Of a DNA stretch of 30,739 bases, positions 634-28,784 are shown piece after piece. The stretch spans positions 1-30,739 of the forward strand of contig JBBCAX010000333.1 of the NCBI GenBank assembly GCA_051382335.1. The letters are read 5' to 3'. Numbering within the stretch: position 1 is the stretch's first letter; each line of letters opens with the position of its first letter. The DNA comes from Deltaproteobacteria bacterium TL4 (GTDB lineage: Bacteria; SAR324; NAC60-12). Position numbers and translations under genes: made by a program. Below the pieces are notes generated by a model. It was not told where the DNA came from. It made no database searches and worked only from the letters and a program-made list of their open reading frames with translations.

Positions 634-1068
634 ATGCCTTTACCGAGACAGCCCATGCAACACGAAACCGAATCCCTTTCCCCCAAGCCAGTCAATCCCT
701 CAACCACAACAAGGACTCTCATGGCTCAGCAGCCCGCATCGACGAATCCCGTCGCGAAAGTCGCAACAAAAAAACGAGTGGAAGTCTCAAGCCTGGGACT
801 TAAACTGGGTTCTACGGAAAACGCGCTGGCCAAGATCAAAGAAACGACCTCTGAGCCGCTCCAGGAAATGATTAACGCCATTAATGATTTTGTGAGCTGG
901 CTTTTTGACGCTGGCCGTGCCTTGACAGGCACGAGAGTTCCCCGAAAAACTCCGAAGCAGGGCGCAGAGACTCAGACCTCCAATGATCTTAAAGCGTTCG
1001 GACGTATGTTTTTGTTTACATCCCATGAAGTCGTTAAAAAACGAAAAAATGGTGATAAAAAATCTTAA
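634..1068 (+). CDS. Hypothetical protein upstream of the mamK paralog, carrying the shared C-terminal motif LFTSHEVVKKRK
   Basis: 144-aa ORF with GGAGG at 616-620; C-terminal motif matches the ends of ORFs 2715-4718 and 19186-20454. Start is uncertain. Confidence 0.65.
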   Translation: MPLPRQPMQHETESLSPKPVNPSTTTRTLMAQQPASTNPVAKVATKKRVEVSSLGLKLGSTENALAKIKETTSEPLQEMINAINDFVSWLFDAGRALTGTRVPRKTPKQGAETQTSNDLKAFGRMFLFTSHEVVKKRKNGDKKS

Positions 1069-1095
1069 TAGGAACCCCCTGGCTTGAGAGGCGCA

Positions 1096-2568
1096 ATGAG
1101 TACCAGAACATCAAAAACCCCTAAAAACAGAACCAACTCGTTCCCCCAAAACAAAAAAGAGACGAGAGGAAATTCCAATTCTGTGCGAACAACTTCCGGT
1201 CCTGGTCAAAGGATGGCCGCAAGATCCGCGGAGGGGCATGCCGGCAATACCAAACCAGGTCCCGAGGAGATCCAAAGGAAAGTCGGCCCTACCAAAAAGA
1301 ATCTCGGCGGTGTCAAGAGTCAGGTCAGCACTCCCGCGACCAGTTCGAGCAACTCCAAGCCCGGTACCATTAAAACAGCAAGTGAGGCGATTAAAACAAC
1401 GCGAGAGGCGGTCCGGAATGTCCCCAACGCCATAAAAGCGGCAACAGAAGCGCTGATGTCCGAACGGGAATCGCAAGAAGCGGCACAGGAACAAGAAAAA
1501 TCTACTTCTGCCGCTGCACCTTTTCCTGAAAAACGAGCCGGTGGTCCTAAACTGCTCAGAATAGGCATTGATTTGGGAACCGCGAAAACGGCGTTAATTT
1601 CTGAGAGGGGAATCCGAACACTCATGCCTTCGGTAGTTGGCTATCCCAGAGATATCATCAGTACAAAACTATTAAACGCGAATAAAGCGATTGGTGAGGA
1701 GGCTTTAAAGAATCAATCGCATCTCAACCTTTACTACCCCATCGAACACGGTGTGATCACAGAAAACAGTGAAATTGACATTGAAGCAGCAAAAGATCTG
1801 CTCCAGCATGTCTTGAATCTGGCCCAGCCTGAACCAGGAGATAAATTAGCGGTAGTCATTGGAACACCTTCCGCCGCTTCTTTTTCCGGCAGGGAGGCAC
1901 TCTTGAAGCTGGCAAAAGAAATGACGGATGTAACGCTGGTCGCGTCTCAGCCCTTTTTGGTTGCCTATGGGATGGATCGTTTGAGTCAGACGATTGTGAT
2001 TGATATCGGAGCCGGCACAACGAACATCTGTGCCTTGACAGGTTCCATTCCTCTCCCGGAAGATCAAGTGACCCTCACCAAAGCGGGAGATTCCGTGGAC
2101 ATGGTCTTGAGAACACTGATTTCAGAACACCATTTTGGCATACAGATAACCCAGCAATTTTCAAAAAAAATCAAGGAAAAATTCGGATTTGTCGGTGAAA
2201 CTGAAGAGCCGGCGCTCGTTCCTTTCCGAGAAAATGGAAGGCCAAGAATGATTGATGTCACCAAGGAAGTTAAAGCAGCCTGTGAGACACTGATCACTCC
2301 CATTGTGGAAAATATCCAGGATTTGCTGTTGAGATTTGACCCTGAAGACCAGGGAACAGCACTTCAGAACATCTTCCTCGCAGGCAACAGTGCCAAAATC
2401 AAAGGCTTGGATCAAGCCCTTGCAGAGGCACTTGCGGAATACGGTGAGATTCATATTCGAAGAGTTGAAGATCTGGATTACGCAGGATGCAACGGCGCTT
2501 TGAAAATCGCGACGGAGTTCCCTATTGAGCATTGGAATCAAATTGGTGATGTCATTGGATCCTTGTGA
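1096..2568 (+). CDS. mamK: MamK-like actin homolog with about 150-aa low-complexity N-terminal extension
   Basis: Actin phosphate motifs IGIDLGTAKT and IDIGAGTT, plus SVVGYPRDII; colinear with 20480-21511 through to HWNQIGDVIG. ATG 1096 follows GAGG (ORF track starts at TTG 1084). Confidence 0.9.
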   Translation: MSTRTSKTPKNRTNSFPQNKKETRGNSNSVRTTSGPGQRMAARSAEGHAGNTKPGPEEIQRKVGPTKKNLGGVKSQVSTPATSSSNSKPGTIKTASEAIKTTREAVRNVPNAIKAATEALMSERESQEAAQEQEKSTSAAAPFPEKRAGGPKLLRIGIDLGTAKTALISERGIRTLMPSVVGYPRDIISTKLLNANKAIGEEALKNQSHLNLYYPIEHGVITENSEIDIEAAKDLLQHVLNLAQPEPGDKLAVVIGTPSAASFSGREALLKLAKEMTDVTLVASQPFLVAYGMDRLSQTIVIDIGAGTTNICALTGSIPLPEDQVTLTKAGDSVDMVLRTLISEHHFGIQITQQFSKKIKEKFGFVGETEEPALVPFRENGRPRMIDVTKEVKAACETLITPIVENIQDLLLRFDPEDQGTALQNIFLAGNSAKIKGLDQALAEALAEYGEIHIRRVEDLDYAGCNGALKIATEFPIEHWNQIGDVIGSL

Positions 2569-2635
2569 GTTGTGAGTTTCCACCCCGATACTGAAAAAAA
2601 TTTCATCTAACCTTGACCAACAATAATAAACAACT

Positions 2636-2665
2636 GGCAGTCTGGGATGGCGTTCCCAGACTGCC
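2636..2665. repeat. Perfect 12-bp stem-loop between the mamK paralog and the next gene
   Basis: ggcagtctggga-tggcgt-tcccagactgcc; no U-tract, so it may be an mRNA-stabilising or REP-like hairpin rather than a terminator. Confidence 0.6.
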
Positions 2666-2714: not shown

Positions 2715-4718
2715 ATGGATAATGAACTTCAACCTGAATCAGGTACGACTTTAGAAGAACTACAGGCAATGCTCCAACAATTACAGCTCACCTTTAATAG
2801 TGAAAAAGAAAATTTGGAGGACATCCAGAAAAAATACCAGGAGGCTCAGTTGGAGCTTCAATACATGCAACAGGAACGGGATCAACTTAAAGCCGAAATC
2901 GCCCCGGAAGCCTCTTGGGAGGGACCTGAGGCGTTGATAAACAACGCTGAGGCCACCGCAGCAGATACAACCGAAGAAAATCAAGAGCTTTCAGTTCAAG
3001 CGGAAGCAACTGTGGCAGAGGCGGAAGAACCCACACCAGAAAACCAACCTGAAGCCGTGCCTGCTCCTGAAGCCGAAGAGCCAGAGCCTGCCGGAGAAGC
3101 GTCTCAAACTGAAAACGCTTTAAATGGCATCATAGCCCGGATCGAAAATCTGGAAACCTTGGATGAAACTGAAAAAAATAAAACAGAAGCCCTGCGGCAA
3201 AAACTGGATCATGCGCCACCTCAGCCTGTTCAGCAGTTGAAAGAGGAACTTGAGGCTGAAAAAAAGAAAGTCGTAACGATTCAGCACAAACTGGACAGCG
3301 TGCAGAGCCAACTCCTTGCCCTTCATTCCTTGAAGGAGGAATTTACCGCTAAACAGCGAATCCTTGAAGACTTCCTTCAAAAAAATGAAAACACCGCCAG
3401 TCAACTCCTTGCCCTTCAGCATCTCAAAGAGGAGTTTTTAATGGAAAGAAAAGAGATAGTGGCACTGCAACAAAAGTTTGAAAACATGGACACACAACTC
3501 CTGGCGCTTCAGTACTTGAAAGAGGAATTCTCCGCTGAAACTAAAAAAATGGTCGCCCTTCAACAAAAGTTTAAAAATCTGGAGACTCAGCTCCTGGCGC
3601 TTCAGTACCTGAAAAATGAATTTACCTCCGAAACTCAAAAAATGGTGCTGCTCCAGCAAAAACAGGACAGCATTGACCCGATGATTTTGGAAATCAAACA
3701 CCTTAAAGAGTTAATAATTTCTGATAAAAAAAAAGTGGAGGTGCTTTATGAAAAAAACGAGGATCACTCCGCTGAAATGTTGGCACTGCAACAGAAATAT
3801 AGCCGATTGATGGCCGGACTCCTGGAACTGAAGCAGGAAAGTGACAAAGCTGAGGAAAGAAGAAGTCAACAGGCAGAAACTCGGTCTATCATTACCACTC
3901 AAGCGATAGAAGAGAACGAGCCTCAAAGAACAGCAGCCCCCCGCCCTCATGAAAAAGAGGAACCAAAAACGGGGGGACTCCCGTTTACGGCCCTTAAGGA
4001 AGAACACTTAACCCCTGAGCAGGAAAATAAACTCAAAAGAGCCGCTTCTATCTCCCTTGGAAATATCATAGGCAGTCTTTCTGCGACCAGACATCGCAAG
4101 GAGGACGATGATAACGATAACAACGATACCGAGGATCATGACGGTGATAACCATGTATTCGGTGGTTTTTTTAAAAAACGAAAAGGACATGAATCCCTTT
4201 TAGAAATCCTGGAGGCAGAATTTTCCCCATCCGAACCCCTGCATGGCCATCCGAAAGCCCCCTCTTTAGTGAAAATTCAAACGGCAATCCCGGACTCCGT
4301 CTCGCAGAACAACACGCTGGAAATTCAACCGGTCGCCCCAGATTCCGTCCAGGATAATGACGCAAATCCCGATGTTTCCCCGGAACAGAACACGGAATTA
4401 CCAGTCGCGGACAATCTCCTGGAGACACAAGGAAAAGAGCTTCCACAAAAAGAAGAAACGAACAACCCCCAGGTGAAAGAACCGACTCCTGTTTCTGACC
4501 TCAATCCCTCCGTGGAAATTCAAAAGTCGGAGGAGTGGCTCAAATCAGAAAAAACTGAACCGAACGTGAGTGAGACTTCTGAACCCCGGAAAGCAACCCC
4601 TTCCATTCCCAAAGAATGGTCTGACTCCATGAGTGCCAAAGCGTCAGAGGTTCGGAACTATACCTCAAAACTTTTTACGTCCTACGAGGTCAGAAAAAAG
4701 CCGAAGCGCTCCAAATGA
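2715..4718 (+). CDS. Coiled-coil, acidic repeat protein; partial paralog of 19186-20454 and candidate MamK-associated scaffold
   Basis: 667 aa with AGGA SD; E/Q/K/L-rich coils, 31-aa repeats, acidic Pro-rich linkers, C-terminus LFTSYEVRKKPKRSK. Confidence 0.85.
   Translation: MDNELQPESGTTLEELQAMLQQLQLTFNSEKENLEDIQKKYQEAQLELQYMQQERDQLKAEIAPEASWEGPEALINNAEATAADTTEENQELSVQAEATVAEAEEPTPENQPEAVPAPEAEEPEPAGEASQTENALNGIIARIENLETLDETEKNKTEALRQKLDHAPPQPVQQLKEELEAEKKKVVTIQHKLDSVQSQLLALHSLKEEFTAKQRILEDFLQKNENTASQLLALQHLKEEFLMERKEIVALQQKFENMDTQLLALQYLKEEFSAETKKMVALQQKFKNLETQLLALQYLKNEFTSETQKMVLLQQKQDSIDPMILEIKHLKELIISDKKKVEVLYEKNEDHSAEMLALQQKYSRLMAGLLELKQESDKAEERRSQQAETRSIITTQAIEENEPQRTAAPRPHEKEEPKTGGLPFTALKEEHLTPEQENKLKRAASISLGNIIGSLSATRHRKEDDDNDNNDTEDHDGDNHVFGGFFKKRKGHESLLEILEAEFSPSEPLHGHPKAPSLVKIQTAIPDSVSQNNTLEIQPVAPDSVQDNDANPDVSPEQNTELPVADNLLETQGKELPQKEETNNPQVKEPTPVSDLNPSVEIQKSEEWLKSEKTEPNVSETSEPRKATPSIPKEWSDSMSAKASEVRNYTSKLFTSYEVRKKPKRSK
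3234..3795 (+). repeat. Intragenic 93-nt (31-aa) tandem repeat, about 6 degenerate units
   Basis: QLLAL..LK[EN]EF units start at 3309, 3402, 3495 and 3588, an exact 93-nt period. Confidence 0.85.
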
Positions 4719-4725
4719 TTGTTTC

Positions 4726-4842: not shown

Positions 4843-5049
4843 ATGCCAATTGGAGAGATAGAAACAGCTGGAACGGGTATTCAGATCATAACCAAAGGAG
4901 TCGCCGTCGCTAAAGGTGCTGGAATTTTCACAGGACTCGGTGTTGGGATTGGGACCCTTGGGCCTTACATTTTGGTGGTTCTCTTGGTGATCGGTGCCGT
5001 TTTGTGGTACATCAATGATAGCAAAGCAGAAGCAACACTTTCCCAATAA
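4843..5049 (+). CDS. mms6: Mms6-like small Gly-rich magnetosome membrane protein (Mms6/MamG/MamD type), copy A
   Basis: AGGAGG SD; GAGIFTGLGVGIGTLGP followed by a TM helix; sits just upstream of mmsF; paralog of 15732-16007. Confidence 0.6.
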   Translation: MPIGEIETAGTGIQIITKGVAVAKGAGIFTGLGVGIGTLGPYILVVLLVIGAVLWYINDSKAEATLSQ

Positions 5050-5161: not shown

Positions 5162-5485
5162 ATGGAAGCAAAGCATGTTTTAGAGAGTGAGTTCTCTATG
5201 AAAACCTACATTTTGGCAATCATGAGTTACCTTGGAATCCTCTGCTTGATTCCCGTTTTATTGAATGAAAAAGATGAGTATGTTTATTTTCATGCCAGAC
5301 AGGGTTTGGCCTTATGGATCTGGAATGTAATTGCTTTTTTTGCGCTTTATATTCCTGGAATTGGACAATTTTTCTTTGGTGTGTCTACATTTCTAATCAT
5401 CATTTTTTCACTGATCGGTTTGATTTCCGTGATATTGACCAAAGCCTGGAAGCTTCCGTTGGTTGGAAATATTGCTGGTGTTTAA
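5162..5485 (+). CDS. mmsF: MmsF/MamF-family magnetosome membrane protein, copy A
   Basis: SYLGILCLIP, DEYVYFHARQGLALWIW and AWKLPLV motifs; three hydrophobic segments. Confidence 0.85.
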   Translation: MEAKHVLESEFSMKTYILAIMSYLGILCLIPVLLNEKDEYVYFHARQGLALWIWNVIAFFALYIPGIGQFFFGVSTFLIIIFSLIGLISVILTKAWKLPLVGNIAGV

Positions 5486-6971: not shown

Positions 6972-9900
6972 ATGAAACGACAAATCCGGCACCAATGGCT
7001 TGTGCTGCTATTAGCGTTACTGACCGCATCCCTGGCTTTTGGGGCTGAGCCGAATAACCACTACATTGTCCTGATCAACGGGACAGGATCCATGATCAGA
7101 GGTGTTTCCTATGATACACAGGGAGGTACGATTGTACGGGAGCTTTTGCCGCGAAAATTGGTTTACGCTTTGAGGAAAGCCCGTATCATCGCTCTGGAGA
7201 AAGAAAGTCTCACCCAGATTTTGAGCCTTGACGAGAATAAAGAGTCCTTGATTCCCGCATTTGAGGATGGGGATTATGTGGAAATTCTCAACTTTGGCTG
7301 GCTGGCTCAACCCGGCGCGACTTTTTCGGTCAAAGATTACATCAGCAACCAGTGGAGTGCTTGTGATAAACAAAGCGTCCTCAACAAGTTGAACGAAATC
7401 CAAAGTCAGAATCCCTCCGAAGGGATGGATTCCGAACTGTCCTACAACTCAGATTATGGATTCAGCACGTTGGCGGTGCCTGCCGCAATCTCAACAAAAC
7501 ATACCCGGCAACCGAGCGGTTGTAAAGTTCCTGAGGGGCGGGTTTTCGTATTCATGATTACCGACTATGACTATAATACCTCCGACCGTAACTCCGAATT
7601 GGCTTCATTCCAAAAACAATACAACATGAGTGGCGCCTTTGAAATCATGGGCCAGTTCAATCGCTATTACCAAAACCCTGTCACCTGGTATCACCAGGAT
7701 AAGGATGACCAGTATCCAGAGGAGTCCTCGCTGGTAAAAACGCATTTGGAAGAACGCATCACCCGAACCAACAGATCCCAAAAACTTAAAGAAGTAGTCA
7801 GTTATTTAATCCTCGTAGGTTATGAGCTGATTCCTAATGTGATTGCCGACTTTGAAAAACAACTCCAATGGCATAAAACATCGAATCCCACACAGCTTGT
7901 AGTCCATCAGACCGAAAAGCAACTCGTGATGCTGGAACCCTTCAGTTTTCCGCTCATCTCCAGCAGTCTTTATTGTCACAAGAATAAATGCCAGAAATTT
8001 CAACTTTTTTCCCCTGATTTCACGACAACGCCCAAACCCTCAATCATCGAAATTCCTTCTGCCGCCCATTCTTCTTTTGACCTGGTTTGGGAACCTTCAG
8101 AAGATCCCAACTGGAAAATCCCGGATCAATTGACGGTTGAAATTAAAATTGAAAGTGAAGATCCTCTGCATGGAAAGCTTGTCCGGGTTTACTCCAAAAC
8201 GTATCCAAAACTGAATATTGTCAAACCAGAGATTTCCCGCGCCGAAGACGGCACAGCGCTGGAGGGCCCACTCACAGTCAAGGTTCCCTCTCCAAGTGAT
8301 GCGGACGCAACTTCGGATTTCTTTCAAAATGAAGCCACCTCGGAAGAGAGATCAACCCCCGCGACTTACCGCGATGGGGATGCAACCTCACCCCTCGCAA
8401 CCTATGAAGAAACACAAAGGACGGCTTCCGCAGCAAAAGCGTCTCAAGCCGAGAAAACTTCTGCCTTCGATCATTTAATCCGCATTCTTGGTTTGATTTG
8501 TGCTCTTCTCGCCTTCTGGTATTGGCGAAAATATAAAAAGGAACGGGAAAGGCTCCAGCAAGCCCCTGCCAAAAAAGAAACAACGCCTGTCCTTCAAAAA
8601 GATCCAAAACTGGAACAGCAAGCTCAGCAAATCAATGAATTAAATCTCAAAGCAGAAGTCCTGAAAAAACAATACCAACAGGAAATCGAAAAACTCAAAA
8701 CCGAAACGCTGTCCAAAGAGCAGTTGGTTGAAAAACAAGCTCAGCAGATCAAAGACTTGAACAACACTAAAGCCTTGTTGGAACAGCAGCATCTAAAGCA
8801 ATTGGATGAACTCAAAACCGAAACGCTGTCCAAAGAGCAGTTGGTTGAAAAACAAGCTCAGCAGATCAAAGACTTGAACAACACTAAAGCCTTGTTGGAA
8901 CAGCAGCACCAAAAGGAGTTTCAAACGTTGATTGAGAAAGACAATCAATTGAAAGAACTCCGGGAGAGTCCAGAGAAAAAGAAACAACAGATTGATGAAA
9001 TTCGTGATCAGCACCAATGGACTGAAACTCCATCCGTCAATGTCGGGGCTGTCATAGAACCCCTAAAAGTTGAAGACACGCTCACTGGGGAAACTGAAGC
9101 CGCTGAGGATCAAAGTAAAACTTCCGAGAAAATAGAACTCACAACAGACGAAAATGAACTCGCAACAGACGAAACGGAGAGGGTTGGGGAAGTTAGAAAA
9201 GTAGAAACGGAGCAGGTTGAGATGGTCGAGAAAATCATGGAAGAAGCAACTGAGGAACCCACAGATAACGTTGGGGAAACCATGGAGGAAAAAACTCAGG
9301 AGAAAGTTCCGGAAGAAGAACCCTCCGAAGGAAAAGAAGTCGTGGAGACCCCGGAAGCAACAACTGAAATAGAAACGTCGGAACGCATCCCTGAAGAGGA
9401 AAAAACCGACCAGTTATTAGGCGAAACGCAGAAAACCCCAGACGCAACCGATGTAACGGACTCGACAACTGAGACTGATCTTACTGAAGAGTTTCAGGAA
9501 GAAGACACGGCTGAGGTACGGGATGAAACTGAAGACCTGAAGGAACAGGAAACAGCTAACGTACTGGATGAAGCGAAAGAAAAAGAAATGACTGACGAAG
9601 AGGTCGAAGACCTGAAGGAACAGGAAACGACTAATGTACTGGATGAAGCGAAAGAAAAAGACATAACTGACGTGCTGGATGTTTCAAAAAAAGAGGCAAC
9701 GGCTAGCGTACAGGAAGAAGTTGAAGACCTGAAGGAACATGAACTGACTAATGTCCTGGATGAAGCGAAAGAAGAAGAAACGGCCGAAGACCTGAAAGAA
9801 GAAATGGTCGAAGACCTGAAGGCAGAAGAAACAGCGAACGTCCTGGATGAAGCGAAAGAGGCAGAAATGACTGAAGTACTGGATGAAACGAAAGATCTGA

Positions 9901-10826: not shown

Positions 10827-11051
10827 ATGAAATTAGAGATTTTTAAAACCAAGGTAACTCACGCCAGTTTTATTTTTGGCATTGTGATTCTGGTCATTGG
10901 ACTGTGGCGTTTATCTGTCTGGCGATGGTCTGTGGCTGAGTTTTTGCGCGGAACTGTTCCTATTGTGTTGATTCTATTTGGTTTAACAGCAATCGGTGCT
11001 GGACTTTCAGAATTGAAAAAAGTTAAAAACATAACGGAAAATGAAGATTAA
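10827..11051 (+). CDS. mamI: MamI paralog (copy A)
   Basis: WRWSVAEFLRGTVPIVLILFGLTAIGAG matches WWWSVVELLRGFAPVALVLFGIIAVGAG of copy B; two TM helices; upstream of mamE'. Start uncertain (track gives TTG 10734). Confidence 0.8.
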   Translation: MKLEIFKTKVTHASFIFGIVILVIGLWRLSVWRWSVAEFLRGTVPIVLILFGLTAIGAGLSELKKVKNITENED

Positions 11052-14709: not shown

Positions 14710-14813
14710 TATAGATGTTCAGAAAATTAACGACACCGTAGAAGAGGCGTCTCGCCTCTTTCAAGGAGCGGGACGCTCCTTCTACTGTGAATTTATTTAA
14801 ATGAACATCTATA
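14710..14813. mobile_element. Second MITE-like element of the tatagaYgttca family, enclosing a GTAG-type REP hairpin
   Basis: Right end 14788-14813 matches the reverse complement of 10418-10443 at 25 of 26 nt; left end tatagatgttca; internal gtagaagaggcgtctcgc...gcgggacgctccttctac (14738-14785). Confidence 0.72.
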
Positions 14814-14821
14814 CGAAGAAA

Positions 14822-16829: not shown

Positions 16830-17027
16830 ATGACAAATGTAATTGTTGGCGTAGTCGCCTGTGCGCTGGGATTTTGGGGGTTATACACGTGGTGGTGGTC
16901 TGTTGTGGAACTTCTGCGTGGTTTTGCGCCTGTAGCTTTAGTTTTATTTGGAATTATTGCCGTTGGAGCCGGTATTACCGCAAAGCGAACCAGTATCAGT
17001 GATGACTCAACCGAAGAAGAGGGATAA
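16830..17027 (+). CDS. mamI: MamI
   Basis: Two TM helices with GLYTWWWSVVELLRG; directly upstream of mamE; alternative start 16809. Confidence 0.9.
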   Translation: MTNVIVGVVACALGFWGLYTWWWSVVELLRGFAPVALVLFGIIAVGAGITAKRTSISDDSTEEEG

Positions 17028-19185: not shown

Positions 19186-20454
19186 ATGAGTTTGATTCAG
19201 AGAAAACTATCAACTAAAACTAAAAATCCTGAGAGTTTTGGTAGCAACACCAATGTCAGGATTTCCGGTACTGAAAATCCATGGAAAGCCGAACGGCAGG
19301 TAGTGAGACCTGCGATTCAGGTAAAAATAACGCCGAGGACCAAAAACCTGGATGACTTTATGCCCCGTAAAAACGTGGTGGCCTCTGGTGTTGACAACCC
19401 ATGGGTCGATACCCCTGCCGTAACAACAGCATCTATTCAAAGAAAGACGGCGTCCAGAATTCCAGAAAATCCCTGGAATTTCGAAAAACCCAAATCCCCT
19501 GCAACGGTTGAAGTCAAATCCATATCCTTCGGACGCACGATGCCTCAGACAAACGTACAGAGCGTGTCTTTTGAAGAAAATCCCGCGTTGAAGGAAATGC
19601 AGACAACCCTGCTGCAATTGCAAAACGCGTTTGAAAACGAAAAAAAGAAGATCTCCGATCTTCATCAAAGCCATGACAGTACTTTAAAAGCACTGGAAAA
19701 CGCCAAAAAAGAACGAGATCAACTCCAAGCTCAAAGATCTCAAAAAGAGATTGAGGAACAGCGACGAGCGGAAGAACAGAGAAGGACGGAAGAGCAAAGA
19801 AAAGCGGAAGAGCAAAGAAAAGCGGAAGAACAAAGAAAAGCGGAAGCCGCGTTGCGTGAAGAGCAAAGGATGCAGAGAGAAGCGGAAGCCGCATTGAATG
19901 AAATGAAAGCAAACATCCAAAAGCTCCAGGAGGCTTACCGACAGGAACAAGAAAAAATGGCGGAATTGGAGCGAGTGCAGACCCAAACACGCAATGAGCT
20001 GCGAACAGTTCAAAAAGAGCAGGCTCCGTCAACAGTTAGAAGCCCTCAGAAAACACCTGTTGAAACTAAAGTTGAAAGTCCTCAGAAGATCATCCTTGAG
20101 GCCCGACCGGCACCGGCCCGAGAGCAGCAAAACACGGATACCCCAGTCGCTTCAAATCAGACTGCGGCGCTTGCGCCAAGAAAGAAGAAAAGAACGGTTG
20201 CCGTTTCAGTGGTGAGAGGTCCGTCCAGGATGGTCTTAGACTCTATCCCACAGGCAAAGGAAAAAGTCACAACGTTCATAAAAAAGAAATCGCAACCTGC
20301 TGAACCAAAAGCAGAAATTCAAGTGGTTAAAAAAACAACGGAGGATTCTAAGTTGGGATTCGGAGCATTTAAGGGATTCGGCTTTGCAAGTCAGAATTCG
20401 GGTAAAAAATTGGTTGAATCTTATGAAATCGTAAGAAAGCCTAAACGTCATTAA
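19186..20454 (+). CDS. Coiled-coil protein in the mamJ position (between mamE and mamK), candidate MamK adaptor
   Basis: 422 aa with AGGAG SD; three NPW motifs, EEQRKA repeats, C-terminus LVESYEIVRKPKRH. Confidence 0.85.
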   Translation: MSLIQRKLSTKTKNPESFGSNTNVRISGTENPWKAERQVVRPAIQVKITPRTKNLDDFMPRKNVVASGVDNPWVDTPAVTTASIQRKTASRIPENPWNFEKPKSPATVEVKSISFGRTMPQTNVQSVSFEENPALKEMQTTLLQLQNAFENEKKKISDLHQSHDSTLKALENAKKERDQLQAQRSQKEIEEQRRAEEQRRTEEQRKAEEQRKAEEQRKAEAALREEQRMQREAEAALNEMKANIQKLQEAYRQEQEKMAELERVQTQTRNELRTVQKEQAPSTVRSPQKTPVETKVESPQKIILEARPAPAREQQNTDTPVASNQTAALAPRKKKRTVAVSVVRGPSRMVLDSIPQAKEKVTTFIKKKSQPAEPKAEIQVVKKTTEDSKLGFGAFKGFGFASQNSGKKLVESYEIVRKPKRH

Positions 20455-20479: not shown

Positions 20480-21511
20480 ATGGCAGACGGTAAAAAGCAG
20501 TTCCGAATCGGTATTGATCTTGGAACTTCAAGAACAGCTATAATGACAGAAAGAGGGACTAGAGCGGATTTTATGTCGGTGGTTGGATATCCCAGAGATA
20601 TCATTGGGACCAAGTTGCTGAATGGGACCAAGGCCATTGGGGATGAAGTCATGGAAAAGCGATCATTTCTCGATGTTTACTTTCCACTGGAGAATGGGGT
20701 TATCAAGGAAACCAGTGAAATTGATATGGAAGCTGCCAGAGATTTGTTAAAGCATGCGTTGCTCCTCGCCAAACCCGAGCCTGGTGAGGAAGTCTGCGTA
20801 GTGATTGGTGTTCCTGCCAGAGCCTCTTTTTCAAACAGGGAATCGCTTTTAAAATTGGCGCATGAATTGACCGATGTGACCTTGGTTGTTTCTGAACCGT
20901 TTTTGGTGGCCTATGGCATGAACGAATTAACCAAGTCGATCGTCGTTGATATCGGCGCGGGGACAACGGATATTTGCGCGTTAAAAGGAACGGTTCCTAA
21001 TGCCGAAGATCAAGCGACCATTTCCAAAGGTGGAAACTACGTGGATAAAGTTTTGAGGGCTTTGCTTTTAGAGCGCTATCCCGATATTCAGGTTTCCAAG
21101 CATATGGTCCAAAAGATCAAAGAACAAAACTCCTTCGTCGGTGAAATCAAGGAACCCATCATGATTGAGTTCAGAGCCAACGGAAAACCAAAGCAGTATG
21201 ATGTGTCCAAAGAGATCAAGGACGCCTGTGAAACACTAGTCCTGCCGATTATAGAGCAGATTGAATATCTACTCATGAGATTTGATCCGGATGATCAAGC
21301 AGAAGCACTTCGACATATCTACCTGGCCGGCAACGGTTCGAGGATTCGAGGCATGGACGCGGCCATCGTGGAAGCGCTACAAGAGTATGGTGAGATTAAT
21401 GTAATGTGTGTGGATGACCCTGATTATGCTTGTTGCAAAGGGGCTTTAGGCATTGCGATGGATCTTCCTGTGGCTCATTGGAATCAGATCGGGGATGTCA
21501 TTGGAACATAG
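20480..21511 (+). CDS. mamK: MamK actin-like protein
   Basis: IGIDLGTSRT, SVVGYPRDIIG, VVSEPF and VDIGAGTTDIC; 343 aa; precedes mamL. Confidence 0.96.
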   Translation: MADGKKQFRIGIDLGTSRTAIMTERGTRADFMSVVGYPRDIIGTKLLNGTKAIGDEVMEKRSFLDVYFPLENGVIKETSEIDMEAARDLLKHALLLAKPEPGEEVCVVIGVPARASFSNRESLLKLAHELTDVTLVVSEPFLVAYGMNELTKSIVVDIGAGTTDICALKGTVPNAEDQATISKGGNYVDKVLRALLLERYPDIQVSKHMVQKIKEQNSFVGEIKEPIMIEFRANGKPKQYDVSKEIKDACETLVLPIIEQIEYLLMRFDPDDQAEALRHIYLAGNGSRIRGMDAAIVEALQEYGEINVMCVDDPDYACCKGALGIAMDLPVAHWNQIGDVIGT

Positions 21512-21514: not shown

Positions 21515-21736
21515 ATGTTTAAGCGTATAGCGACATTTATTATAATACTGCTGCTATTGATCTTTGCCTTGCAGAATTTCGACATTGTGCAAGTGCGATT
21601 CATTGTAGGCCCCGTGATGAGAATACCCTTATCCTTTGTGATGGCAGCGGGGTTCATACTCGGGTATCTCTTGTGTTATTTCGGTAACATCTTTAAAAGT
21701 TTAAAGAACAGGAAAAAAGAGCAAATTGAAGAATGA
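21515..21736 (+). CDS. mamL: MamL
   Basis: 73 aa, two TM helices (IFALQN...GFILG) and a basic tail; located between mamK and mamM. Confidence 0.82.
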   Translation: MFKRIATFIIILLLLIFALQNFDIVQVRFIVGPVMRIPLSFVMAAGFILGYLLCYFGNIFKSLKNRKKEQIEE

Positions 21737-22102: not shown

Positions 22103-23014
22103 ATGCAAATTGCTAATTGTACCGTCTGCTATAGATTTGTCGGCTGGATTGGGTTAGGAAGCAATCTGTTTATGTCGCTGCTAAAGCTGTTTGTCGGTAT
22201 TGTCTCCGGTTCTCAGGCCTTGATTGCGGACGCGATGTATTCGGCCAAGGATTTGGTGACCTCGATATTGATCATCGTAGGGCTGAAGATTTCCGTTAAG
22301 CCTGTGGATAAAGAACACATGTATGGACATGGCAAAGTGGAATTCCTCCTTGCCTTGGTGGTCAGTATCGTCTTTATCATTGTGACCGGAATGATTTTAT
22401 TCTTTACCGCGGATCATTTCATTCAAGGAAAGCACAAAGTTCCTAATTTGATTGCCCTTTTTACTGCCCTGTTTTCGATTGTAACTAATTTATTTCTCTA
22501 TAAATACACTCGATGCGTAACCCGGCAGATCAATAGTCCGATGGTAAAGACCTTGTCCAAACATCATTGGGCGGACATGCTCTCATCCCTTGCGGTAGCT
22601 GGGGGTATTATTGGGGCACACTATTTGGGGCTGACTTGGCTGGACTCTCTGATTGCGATTTTTGAGACCTTACATCTTTTATACCTGGGCGTTGAAGTCT
22701 TGTGGGAAGCGGTTCAAGGACTGATGGATTACTCCGCACCTGAAGAGATGCTGGATGAAATCAAAAAGAACGCCTTGGAAGTGGACAAGGTCAGAAGTTT
22801 AGTGAGTTTGAAGACAAGACGTATTGGTCAGGGATTATGGATTGATATTGTGATTGGTGTGGACCCGGATATGAATGTTGGTGACGCACATAAAGTGATG
22901 AAATCCGTTGAGCTGAATATTTTCAACTCCCTGGATCATATCACCAACATCAATGTACGTTTTGAGTCAGTTGAGGGATTACCCCAAATGGACTTATTAC
23001 CTGTAGGAGAATAA
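22103..23014 (+). CDS. mamM: MamM CDF transporter
   Basis: N-terminal CTVC..VGWIGL, GSQALIADAMYSAKD, YGHGKVEF and HHWAD. Confidence 0.94.
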   Translation: MQIANCTVCYRFVGWIGLGSNLFMSLLKLFVGIVSGSQALIADAMYSAKDLVTSILIIVGLKISVKPVDKEHMYGHGKVEFLLALVVSIVFIIVTGMILFFTADHFIQGKHKVPNLIALFTALFSIVTNLFLYKYTRCVTRQINSPMVKTLSKHHWADMLSSLAVAGGIIGAHYLGLTWLDSLIAIFETLHLLYLGVEVLWEAVQGLMDYSAPEEMLDEIKKNALEVDKVRSLVSLKTRRIGQGLWIDIVIGVDPDMNVGDAHKVMKSVELNIFNSLDHITNINVRFESVEGLPQMDLLPVGE

Positions 23015-23019: not shown

Positions 23020-24840
23020 GTGAAAGCACGAAAATTCTTTTGTTTAAGCCCATGGAAAGCAATGGCGGTTTTTCTCTCAATAACAGGGATTGCCTTGTTT
23101 ATGTGGGGAGTGCATATTTTAAGGGAACACTCGGAATATAACGCGTTCAACTATGTCGACAGCACGGAGCCAAAGGCGATTAGCATCAAAGCCGAAATGC
23201 CTCCGCAACCCGCCTTCTCGTCGAACTTTGAGAAAACCGTTGTTTCTGTCGCGGGAGAACTTGAGAATCAATTCATTCCTGTAGGTTCCGGCGTTGTGGT
23301 GAGTGAGTCGGGGCATATCGTTACCGCCTTGCATCTCATTTCCAATTTCAAAATTCTTCGGGTTGAGATCCACCATCAGTTCTATGACGCTCAGGTGATT
23401 AAGAAAATATACGATCATGACTTGGTACTGCTGAAAGTCATATCCAACGACATCTTTCCCTATACCCGTCTCGAATGCCCCCTGCCGGACCGTGGTGAAA
23501 CCGTGTATGCCTTTGGTATTGATAACGGTTTGATCGCCAGACAGGGTATTATCAATGGCGTCGGACTGAATCTCAACATCAATCAAACCACTTATCGGAA
23601 TTTGTTAAAAACGGACGCCATCTATACCTGGACACAAAGCGGCGGCCCGTTAATGAATATCTACGGACACATGATCGGGCTCAATATCGCGGTCAATGAG
23701 CCCACCGGATTTACAGGATACGCCGTGCCGTCACTTGAGGTGTGCACGGGTTTCCGGGATATGGTGGACTTTGATGTTTTAAAAAACTTAGATTTATATA
23801 CTGAAGAAATTCAGGCCAAATGGATCCAGAGAGCCAAGGATTTTGCTGAAAGCGTGCAAGAGGTCATCGTATCCAATAAACTGGAACAAATCGACTTGTA
23901 TGCGGAGGATTATTCGAAACAGGGGTGGGAGCAAGCACGAAGTCTCGCGAATAAAATGGTCGAAGTTTATAATAAAGCGGAGGGGATCGATTACACACTG
24001 AAGATTCTTACAGAACCAGATCTCTATATTTGGGGACATACCATCAACTCGATTTTTGGCCTCTTGCTTTTGGGATTTATCTCTGGTGTCAGTGCGGGCA
24101 TGGTCACCATGGGAGGTGGGATCATCAAGATCAGCGGCTTGATGCTGATCTTTGGTTATGGGCTATCGGTCATCCGCCCTGTAGCTTATATTACCAACAT
24201 CTTTGTCTATGGCGCGGCCGCGATACGGTACAAGAAAGACAAGCTGATTTCATGGGGGAATGTGACGCCCCTGATTCCATTTGCGATTGTGGGCTTTCTC
24301 ATCGGATATTTCACAGGAAACTATCTGGACAATACCACCATACGCTATATGCTGGGTGTCTTTGCGGCATGGATTGGGTTCAAAATGGTGTTGGAAATCT
24401 ATCAAAGCCTGTCCGGTCGAAGTGTAGCAGAACCTGAACCTACACCTGAGGGAGAGGGACATCATCTTAAAAACAGTTGGCTTGGACTGCCGATGGGAAT
24501 CATTAGTGGTATTTTGGGCATCAGCGGAGGCGTGATTGAAGTTCCTTTACAGCGGTATTTTGCCAAAGTTCCCTTGAAAGAAGCGATTGCGAATAGTTCG
24601 GTGTTAGTCTTTTGGACCTCTTTTTTAGGGGCGATTGTCGCCATGGTCCACGGAGGATACATTGGCGCTTTTGATGTTCACACACCGATCATTTTAGCAG
24701 TGATTGTGATCCCGGGCGCCTATTTTGGCGGTATGGCGGGAGCGTGGCTCACCAAAAATATTCCACTCAACGCACTAAGAACAATCTATGCCCTGTTGAT
24801 GTTCCTCATTGCGGCAAGAATGCTTGTTTCTTATGTGTAA
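23020..24840 (+). CDS. mamO: MamO: trypsin-like domain fused to a TauE-like transporter
   Basis: VGSGVVV..GHIVTALH, HDLVLL and TDAIYTWTQSGGPL; C-terminal TMGGGI, GILGISGGVIEVPLQRY and AIANSSVLVFW; GTG start. Confidence 0.94.
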   Translation: MKARKFFCLSPWKAMAVFLSITGIALFMWGVHILREHSEYNAFNYVDSTEPKAISIKAEMPPQPAFSSNFEKTVVSVAGELENQFIPVGSGVVVSESGHIVTALHLISNFKILRVEIHHQFYDAQVIKKIYDHDLVLLKVISNDIFPYTRLECPLPDRGETVYAFGIDNGLIARQGIINGVGLNLNINQTTYRNLLKTDAIYTWTQSGGPLMNIYGHMIGLNIAVNEPTGFTGYAVPSLEVCTGFRDMVDFDVLKNLDLYTEEIQAKWIQRAKDFAESVQEVIVSNKLEQIDLYAEDYSKQGWEQARSLANKMVEVYNKAEGIDYTLKILTEPDLYIWGHTINSIFGLLLLGFISGVSAGMVTMGGGIIKISGLMLIFGYGLSVIRPVAYITNIFVYGAAAIRYKKDKLISWGNVTPLIPFAIVGFLIGYFTGNYLDNTTIRYMLGVFAAWIGFKMVLEIYQSLSGRSVAEPEPTPEGEGHHLKNSWLGLPMGIISGILGISGGVIEVPLQRYFAKVPLKEAIANSSVLVFWTSFLGAIVAMVHGGYIGAFDVHTPIILAVIVIPGAYFGGMAGAWLTKNIPLNALRTIYALLMFLIAARMLVSYV

Positions 24841-24949: not shown

Positions 24950-25612
24950 ATGAGTAACAAAAAGAAAACACCTGTCAAAGATGTTGACATCATGGATAGT
25001 GTAGGTTTTTACCTGCACTCCAGTCTCATAGTGATGAAAAAAATCGCGGATTCTTCTATTGAATTGTACAAAGGCCTTTTTAATGTGGACAGTGAAGATC
25101 AGGTCACTTATTATCGAACCAAAGGGATTGATCACGCAAAGAAAGCAAAGTATCAGAAAGCCCTTCCACTGTTGAATATCGCCAGGCAGGAAAACCCCGA
25201 GGATGAAACGGTTTTATATTACCTTGGGCTGTCCTTGATCAAAACAGGAGATCATAAGCAAGGGATTGAGGTTCTTGAAGAGGGAGCCAAACTTGACAAT
25301 AAAAATATCAAATTATTTACTTTGCTAGGGACCTCCTACAGTAAATTGGAGGAGTACAACAAAGCGATCCAGGTTTTTGAACAAGCCCTTGCTTTTGAAA
25401 AAACGGTCAACCTGTATTATCGACTGGGTTTTGCCTATGATAATGAAAAAAATCATGATAAAGCCATAGCGTGTTTCAAAGAAGCGATGCTCCTCGAACC
25501 TGACAATGTTAAAGTCTGTCACGCTATCGGTTTGGCTTATGAGTCCAAGGGGAATCGTGACGAAGCGGTAAAATTTTTTAAGAAGGCCTTGGAACTCGAA
25601 GAGGATGTGTAA
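24950..25612 (+). CDS. mamA: MamA TPR protein
   Basis: YYRTKGI followed by about five TPR motifs ending A..FFKKALELEE; position between mamO and mamQ; GGAG SD before ATG 24950. Confidence 0.9.
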   Translation: MSNKKKTPVKDVDIMDSVGFYLHSSLIVMKKIADSSIELYKGLFNVDSEDQVTYYRTKGIDHAKKAKYQKALPLLNIARQENPEDETVLYYLGLSLIKTGDHKQGIEVLEEGAKLDNKNIKLFTLLGTSYSKLEEYNKAIQVFEQALAFEKTVNLYYRLGFAYDNEKNHDKAIACFKEAMLLEPDNVKVCHAIGLAYESKGNRDEAVKFFKKALELEEDV

Positions 25613-25617: not shown

Positions 25618-26370
25618 ATGAGTGAAGAAAAGTCTCCAGAGACAGCAAAAGCCGAACGTCTGCAGCATATGAGGGAACTGGCGCAGAGTTTGTTTACCGT
25701 AGAGGCCCCTCGACCGAAAAAAAGCCAGCGTGAGCTTGATGCCGATCGGAGGTTTTTTATTGTCGCGAGTATCGCCTTTATTATCTTTGCGGTTGCTATT
25801 TTTTTTAGAGTGAATCGGTTCATTGATTTGGAAGAAAAGGTTACTGCGTCTGACGGTAAGCTGGAAGTAGCCATGCAAAGGCGGGCCAACTTGTTCAAAA
25901 ATATTGTCAACGCAACCCTCAATCAGGCAACCCTGGAATATGAGTTGGTAAAACATATCGCTGATTCCCGTTCACCATTGAAAAACGCGCAAAAATTAAA
26001 AAAAGTGGAATTAGATCTGGAGTCCCTGGAAAAATTAAAATCGTCTCCGAATATTGAGGTTTCTCTGCCACAACTGACAGCCTTGGTGGAACAATATCCG
26101 CAAATCAAATTTTCATCAACGTACTCACAGTTGATTGATAATTTGATGGAGATTGAGAATATTATTTCAGAAAGACGGAACGACCGCACTGAAGCCATTA
26201 AGGCTTACAATACAGACATCTCCATATTTCCGCACTATTTTCTGGCGAAAATAGCAGGTTTCAATCGTTATAAATACTTTGAAATCGAAGAGGTATCGCT
26301 AAAGAACGCGCCTGTGTTAAACGCAGAAAAATACGACAGACTTTTACCAGCAGAAACGCATTCCCAATAG
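25618..26370 (+). CDS. mamQ: MamQ (LemA family)
   Basis: QRRANLFKNIVNATLNQA.LEYEL and ALVEQYPQIK; follows mamA. Confidence 0.92.
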   Translation: MSEEKSPETAKAERLQHMRELAQSLFTVEAPRPKKSQRELDADRRFFIVASIAFIIFAVAIFFRVNRFIDLEEKVTASDGKLEVAMQRRANLFKNIVNATLNQATLEYELVKHIADSRSPLKNAQKLKKVELDLESLEKLKSSPNIEVSLPQLTALVEQYPQIKFSSTYSQLIDNLMEIENIISERRNDRTEAIKAYNTDISIFPHYFLAKIAGFNRYKYFEIEEVSLKNAPVLNAEKYDRLLPAETHSQ

Positions 26371-26433: not shown

Positions 26434-27297
26434 ATGAGAAGTCAAGAGTGCTATCAGTGTAGAGTCGAAGTAACCTGGTTCTCACTTATCGTCAATATTT
26501 TCCAGGCGTCTCTAAAATGGATACTTGGGATCATGTACAATAGCTCTGCGCTAATCGCAGATGGGGTGCACTCGTCGGTTGATGTAATTTCAAGCTCTGT
26601 AACCATGGTTAGCGTTAAGATTTCCAGCAAACCTCCGAGTGAAAAATATACTTATGGCTACGGTAACGCTCAATTTATTTCAGAGGCGATTGTGGGGACG
26701 TTGTTGATTTTGGGAGCCAGCTATCTTTTTGTCCACTCAACAATCAATATTATGACGGGAAACCTTGAGGTACCTGGGAAAATAACCATTTTGGGCGCTT
26801 CAGTTTCGATCATCATGAACGCTCTTTTGTTCAAATACCAAAGTTGTGTTGCCAAAGAAAACAACAGTCCCGCTATCATGTCCAACGCTTGGGATAACCG
26901 ATCCGATGCCCTTTCTTCTGTAGCAGTACTTGTCGGAATCATCTTTGCTACTTTTGGATTCCCTGCCGCTGACCCGCTTGCGGCTATCGCCGTATCCTTG
27001 GTGATCGTCAAAATTGGTGTTGAACTGATCATGGACGCCATCAATGGTCTGATGGATCATTCTCCCGATCTAAACGAATTGCACGAGGTTTATTACGCAT
27101 CCAGAAAAGTCCAGGGTGTGCGTGGGATTTCCTCACTCCGAATCCGAAGAAGCGGCGAAACCTCCAGTGTTGATATTGGCATTCAGGTTCGCCCCGAACT
27201 CAAGGTTTATGAAGGGGATCTCATTGCACTGGCTGTAAAATCAAAAATTATTAAAGTGCTTGGACGTGCAGAAGTCCAGGTCTTTGTTGGAGTTTAA
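26434..27297 (+). CDS. mamB: MamB CDF transporter
   Basis: CYQCR.EV.W, ADGVHSSVD, YGYGNAQFIS, NSPAIMSNAWDNRSDA and VYEGDLI. Confidence 0.94.
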   Translation: MRSQECYQCRVEVTWFSLIVNIFQASLKWILGIMYNSSALIADGVHSSVDVISSSVTMVSVKISSKPPSEKYTYGYGNAQFISEAIVGTLLILGASYLFVHSTINIMTGNLEVPGKITILGASVSIIMNALLFKYQSCVAKENNSPAIMSNAWDNRSDALSSVAVLVGIIFATFGFPAADPLAAIAVSLVIVKIGVELIMDAINGLMDHSPDLNELHEVYYASRKVQGVRGISSLRIRRSGETSSVDIGIQVRPELKVYEGDLIALAVKSKIIKVLGRAEVQVFVGV

Positions 27298-27298
27298 A

Positions 27299-27850
27299 AT
27301 GAAACTAAGCGATTGGCATCTCATTCTACTGGGGCTTGCCATATTATTAGCCCTTTTTGCGATTTTCTACGAGGGAGCGCCTCCCTCCAATCAGCCAGTG
27401 CAAAATACTCCGAGTCCGAATGCTCAGGGACAAAGCACTCCACTGCAAAACACACAGCCCGCTTTTGCGCCAAACAATCAGGGTGCACCGCAAACCGCTC
27501 CAGCACCAACACCGCCCCAACCTCCGCTAAGATTCAGGGATCGGATGGCTATAAATTTCAGTGGAACCATTGAATCGCTGCTCTATCTGGAAGACAAACA
27601 GGATACCGTTCATATTCTGCTACGGGACGATATCGGTTTCAAAAAAGAACTCTCCGTTTCTCCCGCATGGTTTCTGGAATACAGCGCTTGCCCTTTAGCC
27701 GTTGGTAATCATATTTCCGGTAGTGGCTTTCTGTTTGAGACAGGAAACCAGGGAGCCTTGATTTACGCGAAAAAAATCAGATTAGGCGCACAAGTCTGCC
27801 GCTTTAGAAATGACGAAGGATTTGCCTTTTGGTCTGATAAATTAAGGTGA
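27299..27850 (+). CDS. mamS: MamS
   Basis: N-terminal TM, Pro/Gln linker, then SVSPAWFLEY.AC, IYAKKI and CRFRNDEGFAFWS; follows mamB. Confidence 0.9.
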   Translation: MKLSDWHLILLGLAILLALFAIFYEGAPPSNQPVQNTPSPNAQGQSTPLQNTQPAFAPNNQGAPQTAPAPTPPQPPLRFRDRMAINFSGTIESLLYLEDKQDTVHILLRDDIGFKKELSVSPAWFLEYSACPLAVGNHISGSGFLFETGNQGALIYAKKIRLGAQVCRFRNDEGFAFWSDKLR

Positions 27851-27854
27851 AAAA

Positions 27855-28784
27855 ATGAAATATAACCATTGTCATCCCTGTGTTCAAGAAGCCGCCAGAC
27901 TGGACATGATCGTTGCGCTGTTTCAAGGGGTCTTTAAACTGGTGATAGCGTTCGTCACCGGAAGTGTTGCGTTAAGCGCCTCAGGTTTTTTTTCCCTTGC
28001 AGATTTTTTAACCAAAATCATTACCATGGTCAGCGTCAAAGTTGCCAGTTTGCCTCCAAACGAAAGATTCCCTTACGGTTATGGCAAAATTGAGTTTTTA
28101 TCTTCTATTTTGATTGGCTTTCTCCTTGTCCTTGGAGCCTTTTTCTTTTTACTCAGACAGTTTCTAACTGCGGCGACCCCCCGTGTTACACCGGAGTGGA
28201 TCGCTTTAATCGCCGTTTTGTTATCCGCCGTTCTCGCTGACATGATGTCCCGCCATCTGCACTGTGCCGGCACCGAAAATAACAGCACTGCCATCCTTGC
28301 CGCAGCCTGGGATAACCGCATGGACTCCTTATCCTCCGTTGCTGTCTTTATCGGAATTTCCCTGACTTATTTCGGATGGGAATCCGCGGATTATTGGGCC
28401 GCTTCCATCATTTCGGTGATGATCATTTACGTTGGAGGGAGGATCTTCTATGATGCTTTTCGAAGTTTAATGGACACTTCTATTCCTGAAAAGATCACTA
28501 GTGAAATCATGCGAATGGCAAGAAGAACCACAGGTGTTGTAAAGGTTGAATACTGCCGCAGCCGCAGTCTGGGAGACACCTGGGAATTGAGTTTACAACT
28601 TGCGGTTGATGATCAGTTATCGGTATATGAAATTCATCAACTCGTCAAAACGCTAAGGCATCGGATTTATGAGCTTCATAAGAATTTTGCATTCATTCAA
28701 ATATCCCACACTCCGGTTAAAAAAACCGAGGATCCTGAGGATTCTCATTTATTAAAAAAATTCAGGGAGAAAACTCAAACATGA
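27855..28784 (+). CDS. Third CDF transporter, MamB-like paralog
   Basis: N-terminal CHPC, GSVALSASGFFSLAD, FPYGYGKIEF and NSTAILAAAWDNRMDSLSS. Confidence 0.88.
   Translation: MKYNHCHPCVQEAARLDMIVALFQGVFKLVIAFVTGSVALSASGFFSLADFLTKIITMVSVKVASLPPNERFPYGYGKIEFLSSILIGFLLVLGAFFFLLRQFLTAATPRVTPEWIALIAVLLSAVLADMMSRHLHCAGTENNSTAILAAAWDNRMDSLSSVAVFIGISLTYFGWESADYWAASIISVMIIYVGGRIFYDAFRSLMDTSIPEKITSEIMRMARRTTGVVKVEYCRSRSLGDTWELSLQLAVDDQLSVYEIHQLVKTLRHRIYELHKNFAFIQISHTPVKKTEDPEDSHLLKKFREKTQT

Follow-up and report, generated by a model that had tools for sequence, protein, structure and literature searches.

The 30,739-nt contig JBBCAX010000333.1 of Deltaproteobacteria bacterium TL4 (GenBank assembly GCA_051382335.1; 6.59 Mb in 445 contigs), analyzed over its entire 30.7 kb and referred to here as the window, is by gene content and order a magnetosome gene cluster of the proteobacterial (magnetite) type. 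It carries two diverged partial mamAB-type operons, blocks A and B, that most likely (probability of about 0.7) originated from one duplication in the common ancestor from which the magnetotactic genera of this family descend, followed by complementary losses. Copy A would have been reduced to mamI'-mamE'-mamK'-mamP-mamQ'-mamT, an order that is intact in one relative (genome G007), and copy B would have lost mamP and mamT. mamK' would have been relocated upstream later, in the line leading to the TL4 genome and to a second relative (G009), and in some genera, gene conversion probably homogenized the mamE copies long ago. The closest named homologs of MamK and of the MamF-like protein carry the label "SAR324 cluster bacterium," and the family is likely, judging from these labels, to be SAR324.

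Two partial operons with complementary gene content

Genes were called by translation, all-against-all blastp, and Pfam and NCBIfam scans of 29 open reading frames (ORFs) of the window; all those listed here are on the + strand. The core genes mamA, mamB, mamE, mamI, mamK, mamM, mamO, mamP, and mamQ are clustered in the window, each identified by its best NCBIfam match. The curated NCBIfam cut-offs are passed by both copies of mamK, by mamM and mamB, and by the block B mamI; mamA, mamE, mamO, mamP, mamQ, mamS, mamT, and mamI' score below them. mamP and mamT are found exclusively in block A, and mamL, mamM, mamO, mamA, mamB, and mamS exclusively in block B. Elsewhere in the assembly there are no further mam copies, only generic MreB, HtrA, LemA, TPR, and CDF homologs. 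Searches with the G009 copies of mamX and mamZ/mamH-like genes found neither in the TL4 genome; in G009, mamX and mamZ are located on a separate contig (G009:C8:39488-42179).

Block B has the order mms6-like, mmsF/mamF-like, I-E-x-K-L-M-O-A-Q-B-S, and a third CDF gene. The original prediction had read its mam genes as the canonical order without mamP and mamT, and gap lengths, tblastn, and the gene order in outgroups all bear this out. The gap between mamO and mamA is 109 nt and the one after mamS is 4 nt, and low-stringency tblastn revealed no convincing mamP or mamT remnants in the block B gaps. In all 24 of the 75 non-SAR324 loci whose fetched stretch includes both genes, mamP is found between mamO and mamA; in 12 of 14, mamS is followed by mamT, the remaining two having mamS as the last mam gene detected. 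Except for mamP and mamT, the gene order of the window agrees with that of 24 outgroup loci. The mms6-like gene (15732..16007) was assigned by blastp to copy A and by NCBIfam, and the mmsF/mamF-like gene (16080..16406) by its tree placement and by matches of its homologs to PF09685, which we take to be the MamF/MmsF family. They are followed by mamI (16809..17027; NCBIfam, 82.5 bits, cut-off 80) and mamE (17037..19052), a gene for a 422-aa coiled-coil-like protein in the mamJ position (19186..20454), and mamK (20480..21511). mamL (21515..21736) is identified by its position and a weak NCBIfam MamL match (E value of 0.071). It precedes mamM (22103..23014; 385 bits, cut-off 350), mamO (23020..24840), which combines protease-like and TauE parts, and mamA (24950..25612), which contains TPRs. 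The remaining genes are mamQ (25618..26370; Pfam/NCBIfam), mamB (26434..27297; 366 bits, cut-off 350), and mamS (27299..27850; NCBIfam).

Block A starts with a gene for a 144-aa protein (634..1068), mamK' (1096..2568), and a gene for a 667-aa coiled-coil-like protein (2715..4718). These are followed by mms6/mamD/mamG-like (4843..5049) and mmsF/mamF-like (5162..5485) genes and a gene for an 1144-aa membrane protein (6972..10406). The mms6/mamD/mamG-like product is a small membrane protein with weak NCBIfam matches below the cut-offs (E values of 1e-4 to 6e-4), and the mmsF/mamF-like gene was assigned by its tree placement. Gaps of 1486 and 420 nt split the block into about three likely transcription units. 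The last of these is a tightly packed series with intergenic gaps of 2 to 27 nt: mamI' (10827..11051; NCBIfam MamI, 63.5 bits, below the cut-off of 80), mamE' (11060..12538), mamP (12550..13296; PDZ and two CxxCH motifs), mamQ' (13324..14115; LemA family, Pfam/NCBIfam), and mamT (14118..14570; two CxxCH motifs). mamP and mamT are the sole copies in the assembly, and comparison with the outgroup loci confirmed the predicted canonical relative order of I'-E'-P-Q'-T. A promoter/terminator scan of positions 1 to 17100 found 29 promoter-like sites versus 23.3 +/- 4.0 in shuffled sequences and was uninformative for operon ends.

Six genes are present as diverged pairs, as had been predicted. In blastp comparisons, the identity is 60% over 342 aa for MamK (E value of 5e-153), 55% over 405 aa for MamE, 45% over 247 aa for MamQ, 43% over 60 aa for MamI, 71% over 105 aa for the MmsF/MamF-like proteins, and 42% over 50 aa for the Mms6-like ones. 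The dN/dS comparison proposed with the prediction yielded dN values of 0.18 to 0.53 for the six pairs, with synonymous sites being saturated (pS, 0.73 to 0.80). The pairs within a genome are about as diverged as those between genera, and blocks A and B are alike in GC3 and codon use. Because the copies of this family are monophyletic (see below), synonymous sites are saturated, and within-genome divergence approximates that between genera, both blocks are, on sequence grounds, native and old. In a tree of concatenated MamE, MamK, and MamQ, the terminal branches of block A are longer in all three genomes (0.71 versus 0.37, 0.57 versus 0.40, and 0.58 versus 0.48), indicating that the block A copies evolve faster.

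The same split in four genera

Within the phylum, mamP is found in 4 of 88 genomes, one copy each: that of TL4 and those of three relatives (G003, G007, and G009), which represent four genera of one family. In a MamK scan of the genome collection, a single-sequence query gave 0 matches, and an alignment query did give matches. G009 encodes K'(reverse)-I'-E'-P-Q'-T-carrier-mms6L-F-I-E-x-K-L-M-O-A-Q-B-S (mms6L, mms6-like; F, mmsF/mamF-like), all inside a single 340-kb contig. G007 has its genes on three contigs, as I'-E'-K'-P-Q'-T, F-I-E-x, and K-L-M-O-A-Q-B-S. G003 has the plan in part: K'-P precedes mms6L-F-I-E-x-K-L-M-O-A-Q-B, and a different contig carries a second mamI as well as mamT. The loss junctions are shared, with O-A in all four genomes, P-Q'-T in three of the four, and K'-P and E'-P in two each.

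The window being the whole of one 30.7-kb contig out of 445, a chimeric assembly of clusters from two strains or species had to be considered. This explanation is extremely improbable: G009 has the same A-then-B arrangement on a long contig, the three other genomes each carry two mamK and two mamI genes, and in the TL4 assembly (100% complete, 2.6% contamination) the single-copy genes are complementary rather than doubled. Because the same plan and junctions recur in other genera, and in G009 on a single contig, these comparisons rule out that the arrangement stems from a chimera and place the split before the divergence of the genera. Reads that would point to a chimera had been named as grounds for rejecting the predicted duplication; the G009 contig, with both blocks, points the other way.

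The gene order also bears on a piecemeal origin of block A, by small duplications of I-E, K, Q, and mms6L-F together with translocation of mamP and mamT and without duplication of the whole operon. Block A of the window is indeed in three separate pieces, with mamK' about 8 kb upstream of mamI', and G009 has a second mms6L-F pair on a different contig. However, the contiguous I'-E'-K'-P-Q'-T of G007 is exactly the canonical operon minus L-M-O, A, and B-S. This order, which matches the prediction of whole-operon duplication, would rarely result from piecemeal assembly, which makes the latter quite improbable. A locus from Magnetococcales (L079), F-E-K-F-Q-S-T-F, represents another partial operon without M-O-P-A-B at the usual places.

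In phylogenetic trees, from which four named SAR324 loci were left out, the family copies of MamQ form one clade (7 rows in a tree of 30 rows; support, 100/100), as do those of MamK (8 rows, 100/100; 40 of 83 rows used) and MamE (6 rows, 100/100; 29 of 39 rows used). The MamF-like copies also form one clade (6 rows, 98/94), with one divergent G003 copy outside it. Because all family copies of MamK, MamE, and MamQ form single clades, the duplication is, on this evidence, in-lineage, with the copies having arisen within the family. The predicted old in-lineage operon duplication with complementary loss is thus supported by monophyly, saturated synonymous sites, and recurrent junctions, and among 75 non-family loci there was no other lineage with which block A would group.

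Monophyly alone does not distinguish this duplication from horizontal transfer, in which the common ancestor would have received block A from a closely related but unsampled magnetotactic lineage and both operons would have been trimmed afterwards, since trees cannot separate the two if the donor was a sister lineage. Operon replacement by transfer has been proposed for Magnetospirillaceae (accessible text of PMC12724286), MamP adjoins one Magnetococcales sequence at 92/96 (unstarred), and block A is flanked by a hicAB pair and by repeats. Such a transfer is nevertheless improbable: the 75 non-family loci yield no donor, the composition of the two blocks matches, and MamP data do not reject the tree of the block-B-only genes mamM, mamO, mamA, and mamB (p-AU of 0.115; 14 of 22 taxa). 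The repeats, moreover, are common genome-wide, and G009 has no hicAB at the corresponding site.

Several observations weigh against a single ancestral duplication. The gene trees show no separate A and B clades, the MamI tree is uninformative, and the concatenated MamE, MamK, and MamQ tree pairs the copies by genome with moderate support (89/92, 85/93, and 64/82). MamE rejects all 9 single-duplication topologies (p-AU of <=0.0014 under LG+F+G4 and <=0.0085 under C20), and so does the concatenation under LG+F+G4 (p-AU of <=0.047). No conversion tracts survive (the best 90-nt windows have an identity of 0.70 to 0.86), so gene conversion is inferred. In G003, which is 93% complete, the second mamE, the second mamQ, and mamS were not found. 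Finally, the active-site substitutions of MamK' and MamE' described below are private to the TL4 genome, the A copies of the relatives being canonical.

These discordant trees are what would be expected from independent duplications in each genus, with the same losses each time because extra doses of the same genes are tolerated or advantageous. In addition to the pairing of copies by genome in MamE and the concatenation, the G003 MamK copies are sisters (98/95), and the doubling of a similar gene subset in the islet of strain AMB-1 (see below) shows that convergence occurs. Independent duplications are still unlikely, as identical multigene deletions (L-M-O, A, and B-S in one copy; P and T in the other) would be required three or more times. 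MamQ has a mild, nonsignificant preference for a single ancestral duplication, MamK rejects only 2 of the 9 topologies, and an A clade is not rejected in a constrained test under a mixture model (P value of 0.169). The by-genome signal in MamE stems from G009 and G007 (22 and 20 exclusive sites, respectively); with 7 such sites, the TL4 genome is within the background of 7 to 13 for cross pairs. The expectation that the A and B copies would be sisters thus holds weakly within the TL4 genome (64/82) and, once the relatives are included, is not what a single duplication predicts. The grouping of MamE by genome points to old gene conversion or parallel duplications. Recent gene conversion was rejected, as the longest identical run is 17 nt and there is no high-identity tract. 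A single duplication early in a rapid radiation, combined with old conversion of mamE, would explain why the junctions are shared and the trees are discordant.

Diverged proteins of the cluster and its neighbors

The paralogs had been described as diverged but intact, which holds for the reading frames; two block A enzymes, MamK' and MamE', carry active-site substitutions. MamK' (490 aa from the ATG or 494 aa from a TTG at 1084; NCBIfam MamK, 426 bits, cut-off 400) has an N-terminal extension of about 150 aa, and its codon 1948-1950 specifies Gln at the position equivalent to E143. This position is occupied by Glu in 169 of 172 distinct MamK sequences (2 sequences did not match the pattern). 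The MamK-like protein of AMB-1 reportedly also lacks E143 and yet retains ATPase activity. The block B MamK, the canonical copy (NCBIfam, 468 bits), has equivalents of both E143 and D161. In strain MSR-1, the E143A replacement results in static filaments (accessible text of PMC5059902). MamK' of this genome is predicted to hydrolyze ATP poorly, which would slow filament turnover.

MamE' (492 aa) consists of a protease domain, one magnetochrome, and one PDZ domain, whereas the block B MamE (671 aa) has canonical active-site motifs, one magnetochrome, and two PDZ domains. MamE' retains the His-Asp-Ser motifs, with a serine loop that reads NLENSGG instead of N-x-GNSGG. Among 40 MamE rows, it is the sole one without Gly two residues ahead of the serine, a residue that presumably forms the oxyanion hole. 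The changes in MamK' and MamE' may represent specialization or decay; since they are private to this genome, they could reflect relaxed selection. In relatives, the block B MamE is much longer, 1323 aa in G003 (C78:32081-36052) and 912 aa in G009 (C33:182672-185410), counted from the first start codon.

The two mamK genes are flanked by three ORFs that share the C-terminal motif L-[FV]-[TEV]-S-[YH]-[ED]-[VI]-x-[KR]-K. The 144-aa ORF upstream of mamK' would encode a MamJ-position protein, the acidic 667-aa protein contains 31-aa repeats, and the 422-aa protein of block B contains three [ED]NPW motifs, as does the one in G009 (about 0.03 expected). A profile built without the TL4 genome ranks these three ORFs 1st to 3rd among 30,125 ORFs (E values of 0.002, 0.0045, and 0.16; the fourth has 0.17). 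With a profile of all seven tails, no place in the 88 genomes other than those seven reaches E<0.001, which is partly by construction, and two marginal matches score near 0.01. The two coiled-coil genes, listed in the original prediction as a paralog pair, are not recognizable as such: they give no blastp match at E<=0.01, show short weak segments only, and share a short C-terminal motif that is found in three ORFs.

The MamJ model finds no match in these three ORFs (two of which were rescanned at E<=1), whereas Magnetospirillum controls score about 550 bits. A profile of 25 tails encoded upstream of mamK in other magnetotactic lineages gave no match in this family; this is a weak test, as it also missed the Magnetospirillum MamJ controls. 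An Atlas search with the 422-aa protein gave no usable match, and a complex prediction for MamK and the C-terminal motif scored 0.01 against a mark of 0.32. The 422-aa ORF resembles MamJ and LimJ in its position between mamE and mamK, its charged low-complexity body, and its E-x-[SN]-P-W-like motif, as published for the MamJ N terminus. The window ORFs differ from them in leaving the MamJ model unmatched and in having a C-terminal motif confined to the clusters of this family. They are thus MamJ-like by position and motif and, judging from the model, are not members of MamJ. A gene upstream of mamK with a glycine-rich C-terminal stretch is common to many loci of Magnetococcia and Gammaproteobacteria and is found in one Nitrospinota locus (L029-L098); of the four such genes tested, none matches the MamJ model. 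ParA/Soj-like ATPase genes, recognized by sequence motifs, are found between mamE and mamK in G003 (C78:31309-32133) and beside mamK' in G009 (C33:173965-174747), and there is none in the window.

The 1144-aa protein of block A has a hydrophobic N terminus, a possible VWA-like domain, one transmembrane helix, and coiled-coil and acidic repeats; its hydrophobic segments are at residues 7 to 27 and 497 to 516. The only other one of the 88 genomes with an orthologue is G009, where the gene is located about 68 kb away from the cluster. Where the McaA-type MIDAS has DxSxS, the protein reads NGTGS, and two distant relatives have DQSGS. VWA clusters match it at 0.81 to 0.85 in the Atlas, which is a lead; it has no Pfam match and no PDB sequence match, and a full-library search returned the protein itself and two weak relatives. 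The structure model of its N-terminal part has a pLDDT of 36. As a lead, its layout might be McaA-like.

The third CDF transporter (27855..28784) had been described as an extra MamB-like CDF. The gene is present, but it is not a mamB duplicate: it scores 279 bits with MamV and 276 bits with MamB, both below the cut-offs, and it groups, on long branches, with CDFs of Magnetococcia and a gammaproteobacterium (100/99) and not with MamB of the family. This tree placement led to the rejection of an in-lineage mamB duplication as its origin and suggests a separate MamB/MamV-like lineage. It is followed by a 51-aa truncated ORF of the CZB (zinc-binding) type at 28781-28936; G009 has a 283-aa CZB-like gene behind mamS. 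A short ORF at 29023-29211 resembles one beside mamK' in G009. The last gene of the window, for an amino-acid carrier of the agcS family (29277-30599), accompanies the cluster, being located behind block B here and in G003 and between the blocks in G009; agcS-family carriers are also found near mam genes in three Magnetococcales loci. In the window, the site between the blocks is occupied by a hicA-hicB toxin-antitoxin pair (14801..15408; Pfam above cut-offs) with a low GC3 of 0.28 to 0.31, whereas G009 has the carrier gene there. No transposase was detected among the 29 scanned ORFs. Intergenic inverted repeats at 280-620, 5490-6970, 10410-10730, and 14575-14815 recur on 27 to 101 other contigs and resemble miniature mobile elements. 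G003 has an aquaporin/MIP-like gene (by-eye sequence call) with a charged C-terminal extension between mamP and mms6-like (C78:37882-39087).

Known duplicated clusters and the likely roles of the two blocks

Duplication of the mamAB operon followed by differential paralog loss has been proposed for Alphaproteobacteria, such as Terasakiella sp. SH-1 with its mamAB-1 and mamAB-2 (PMC6819731), and is also covered in the accessible text of PMC12724286 and PMC9840458. In SH-1, as in the window, a whole operon was duplicated and different paralogs were lost, H-I-E-K being found in one copy only and S-T only in the other. In contrast to the window, most pairs in SH-1 and other Alphaproteobacteria are >80 to 98% identical, and the doubled genes are L-M-O-P-A-Q-R-B, which has been read as dosage or buffering. 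In the window, identities within pairs range from 42 to 71%, synonymous sites are saturated, I, E, K, Q, F, and mms6-like are the genes present twice, and the split extends across genera of another phylum.

The AMB-1 islet (MIS) contains K-, D-, L-, J-, E-, I-, F-, and Q-like genes together with mcaA and mcaB (accessible text of PMC2818848, PMC9512821, and PMC13170167). It is likewise a diverged second set with similar identities (K, 54.5%; E, 51.9%; Q, 37.5%, according to the same texts). Block A has counterparts in K', E', I', F', and Q', in its mms6/mamD-like gene and adaptor-like ORFs (the matches to D- and J-like genes being weak), and perhaps in its 1144-aa membrane protein, the layout of which might be McaA-like. 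However, the islet is described in those texts as strain specific, low in GC, transposase rich, and located outside the main island, whereas block A adjoins block B, matches it in composition, is found across genera, originated in-lineage, is without mamL, and has the sole mamP and mamT. By these comparisons, block A resembles a second gene set of the AMB-1 type but is not an islet.

The dual magnetite and greigite clusters of Desulfobacterota also comprise two diverged mam sets per genome, ascribed to an old duplication (accessible text of PMC5955933 and PMC7602337). These, however, are two clusters for two minerals, whereas in the window both sets belong to a single clade at the family level, each of them incomplete by itself. 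SAR324 clusters have been published and their mms genes noted in PMC7602337, the accessible text of which says nothing on duplication in them; its figures and supplements may show doubled genes. The split is not described in the accessible parts of PMC5955933, PMC9376291, PMC13691129, and bioRxiv 2024.04.27.591411, and no description of it was found in the open-access literature. Duplication with differential loss is thus known in kind, and the window is an old, cross-genus instance of it in a little-studied lineage.

The roles of the two blocks are extrapolated from Magnetospirillum genetics, as summarized in the accessible text of PMC9840458, and from general background. Block B would provide the core machinery that forms vesicles, transports iron, and serves nucleation (I, L, Q, B, M, A, E, O, and S), as well as the dynamic MamK filament. 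Block A would be the only source of the c-type cytochromes MamP and MamT for iron redox control. K', E', Q', I', F', and the adaptor-like proteins would form a second, faster-evolving set with a likely role in modulating the assembly of chains and the growth of vesicles. The proposed division into a heme/redox operon and a membrane/transport operon is weak and too simple, as block A also has I', Q', F', and a cytoskeletal set (K' and two adaptor-like ORFs). The window has 5 CxxCH motifs in block A versus 1 in block B, a bias due to mamP and mamT alone, because the block A MamE of G009 and G007 has 0 CxxCH and the block B MamE has 3 and 2, respectively. A more speculative possibility is that block A is a lineage-wide subfunctionalized second module, convergent with the AMB-1 islet gene set. 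In the TL4 genome, it might serve two-actin chain positioning, with a hydrolysis-poor MamK' extended at its N terminus, a new family of MamJ-like adaptors docking via the C-terminal motif, and a McaA-like membrane anchor, locked in by the sole mamP and mamT.

The split extends magnetosome operon duplication beyond Alphaproteobacteria. The SAR324 MamK, MamE, and MamQ sequences in core-gene phylogenies are mixtures of paralogs. The overlap with the AMB-1 islet suggests a rule by which duplicates of the I, E, K, Q, and F-like genes can diverge freely, whereas M, O, A, and B are kept as single copies. The cluster also supplies natural variants for use in Magnetospirillum hosts, namely, a MamK whose catalytic Glu position is occupied by Gln and a candidate motif of MamK adaptors from outside the genus in which MamJ is known. 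Each copy has genes that the other is without, which is the textbook condition for retaining both; after the complementary losses, both copies would now be required.

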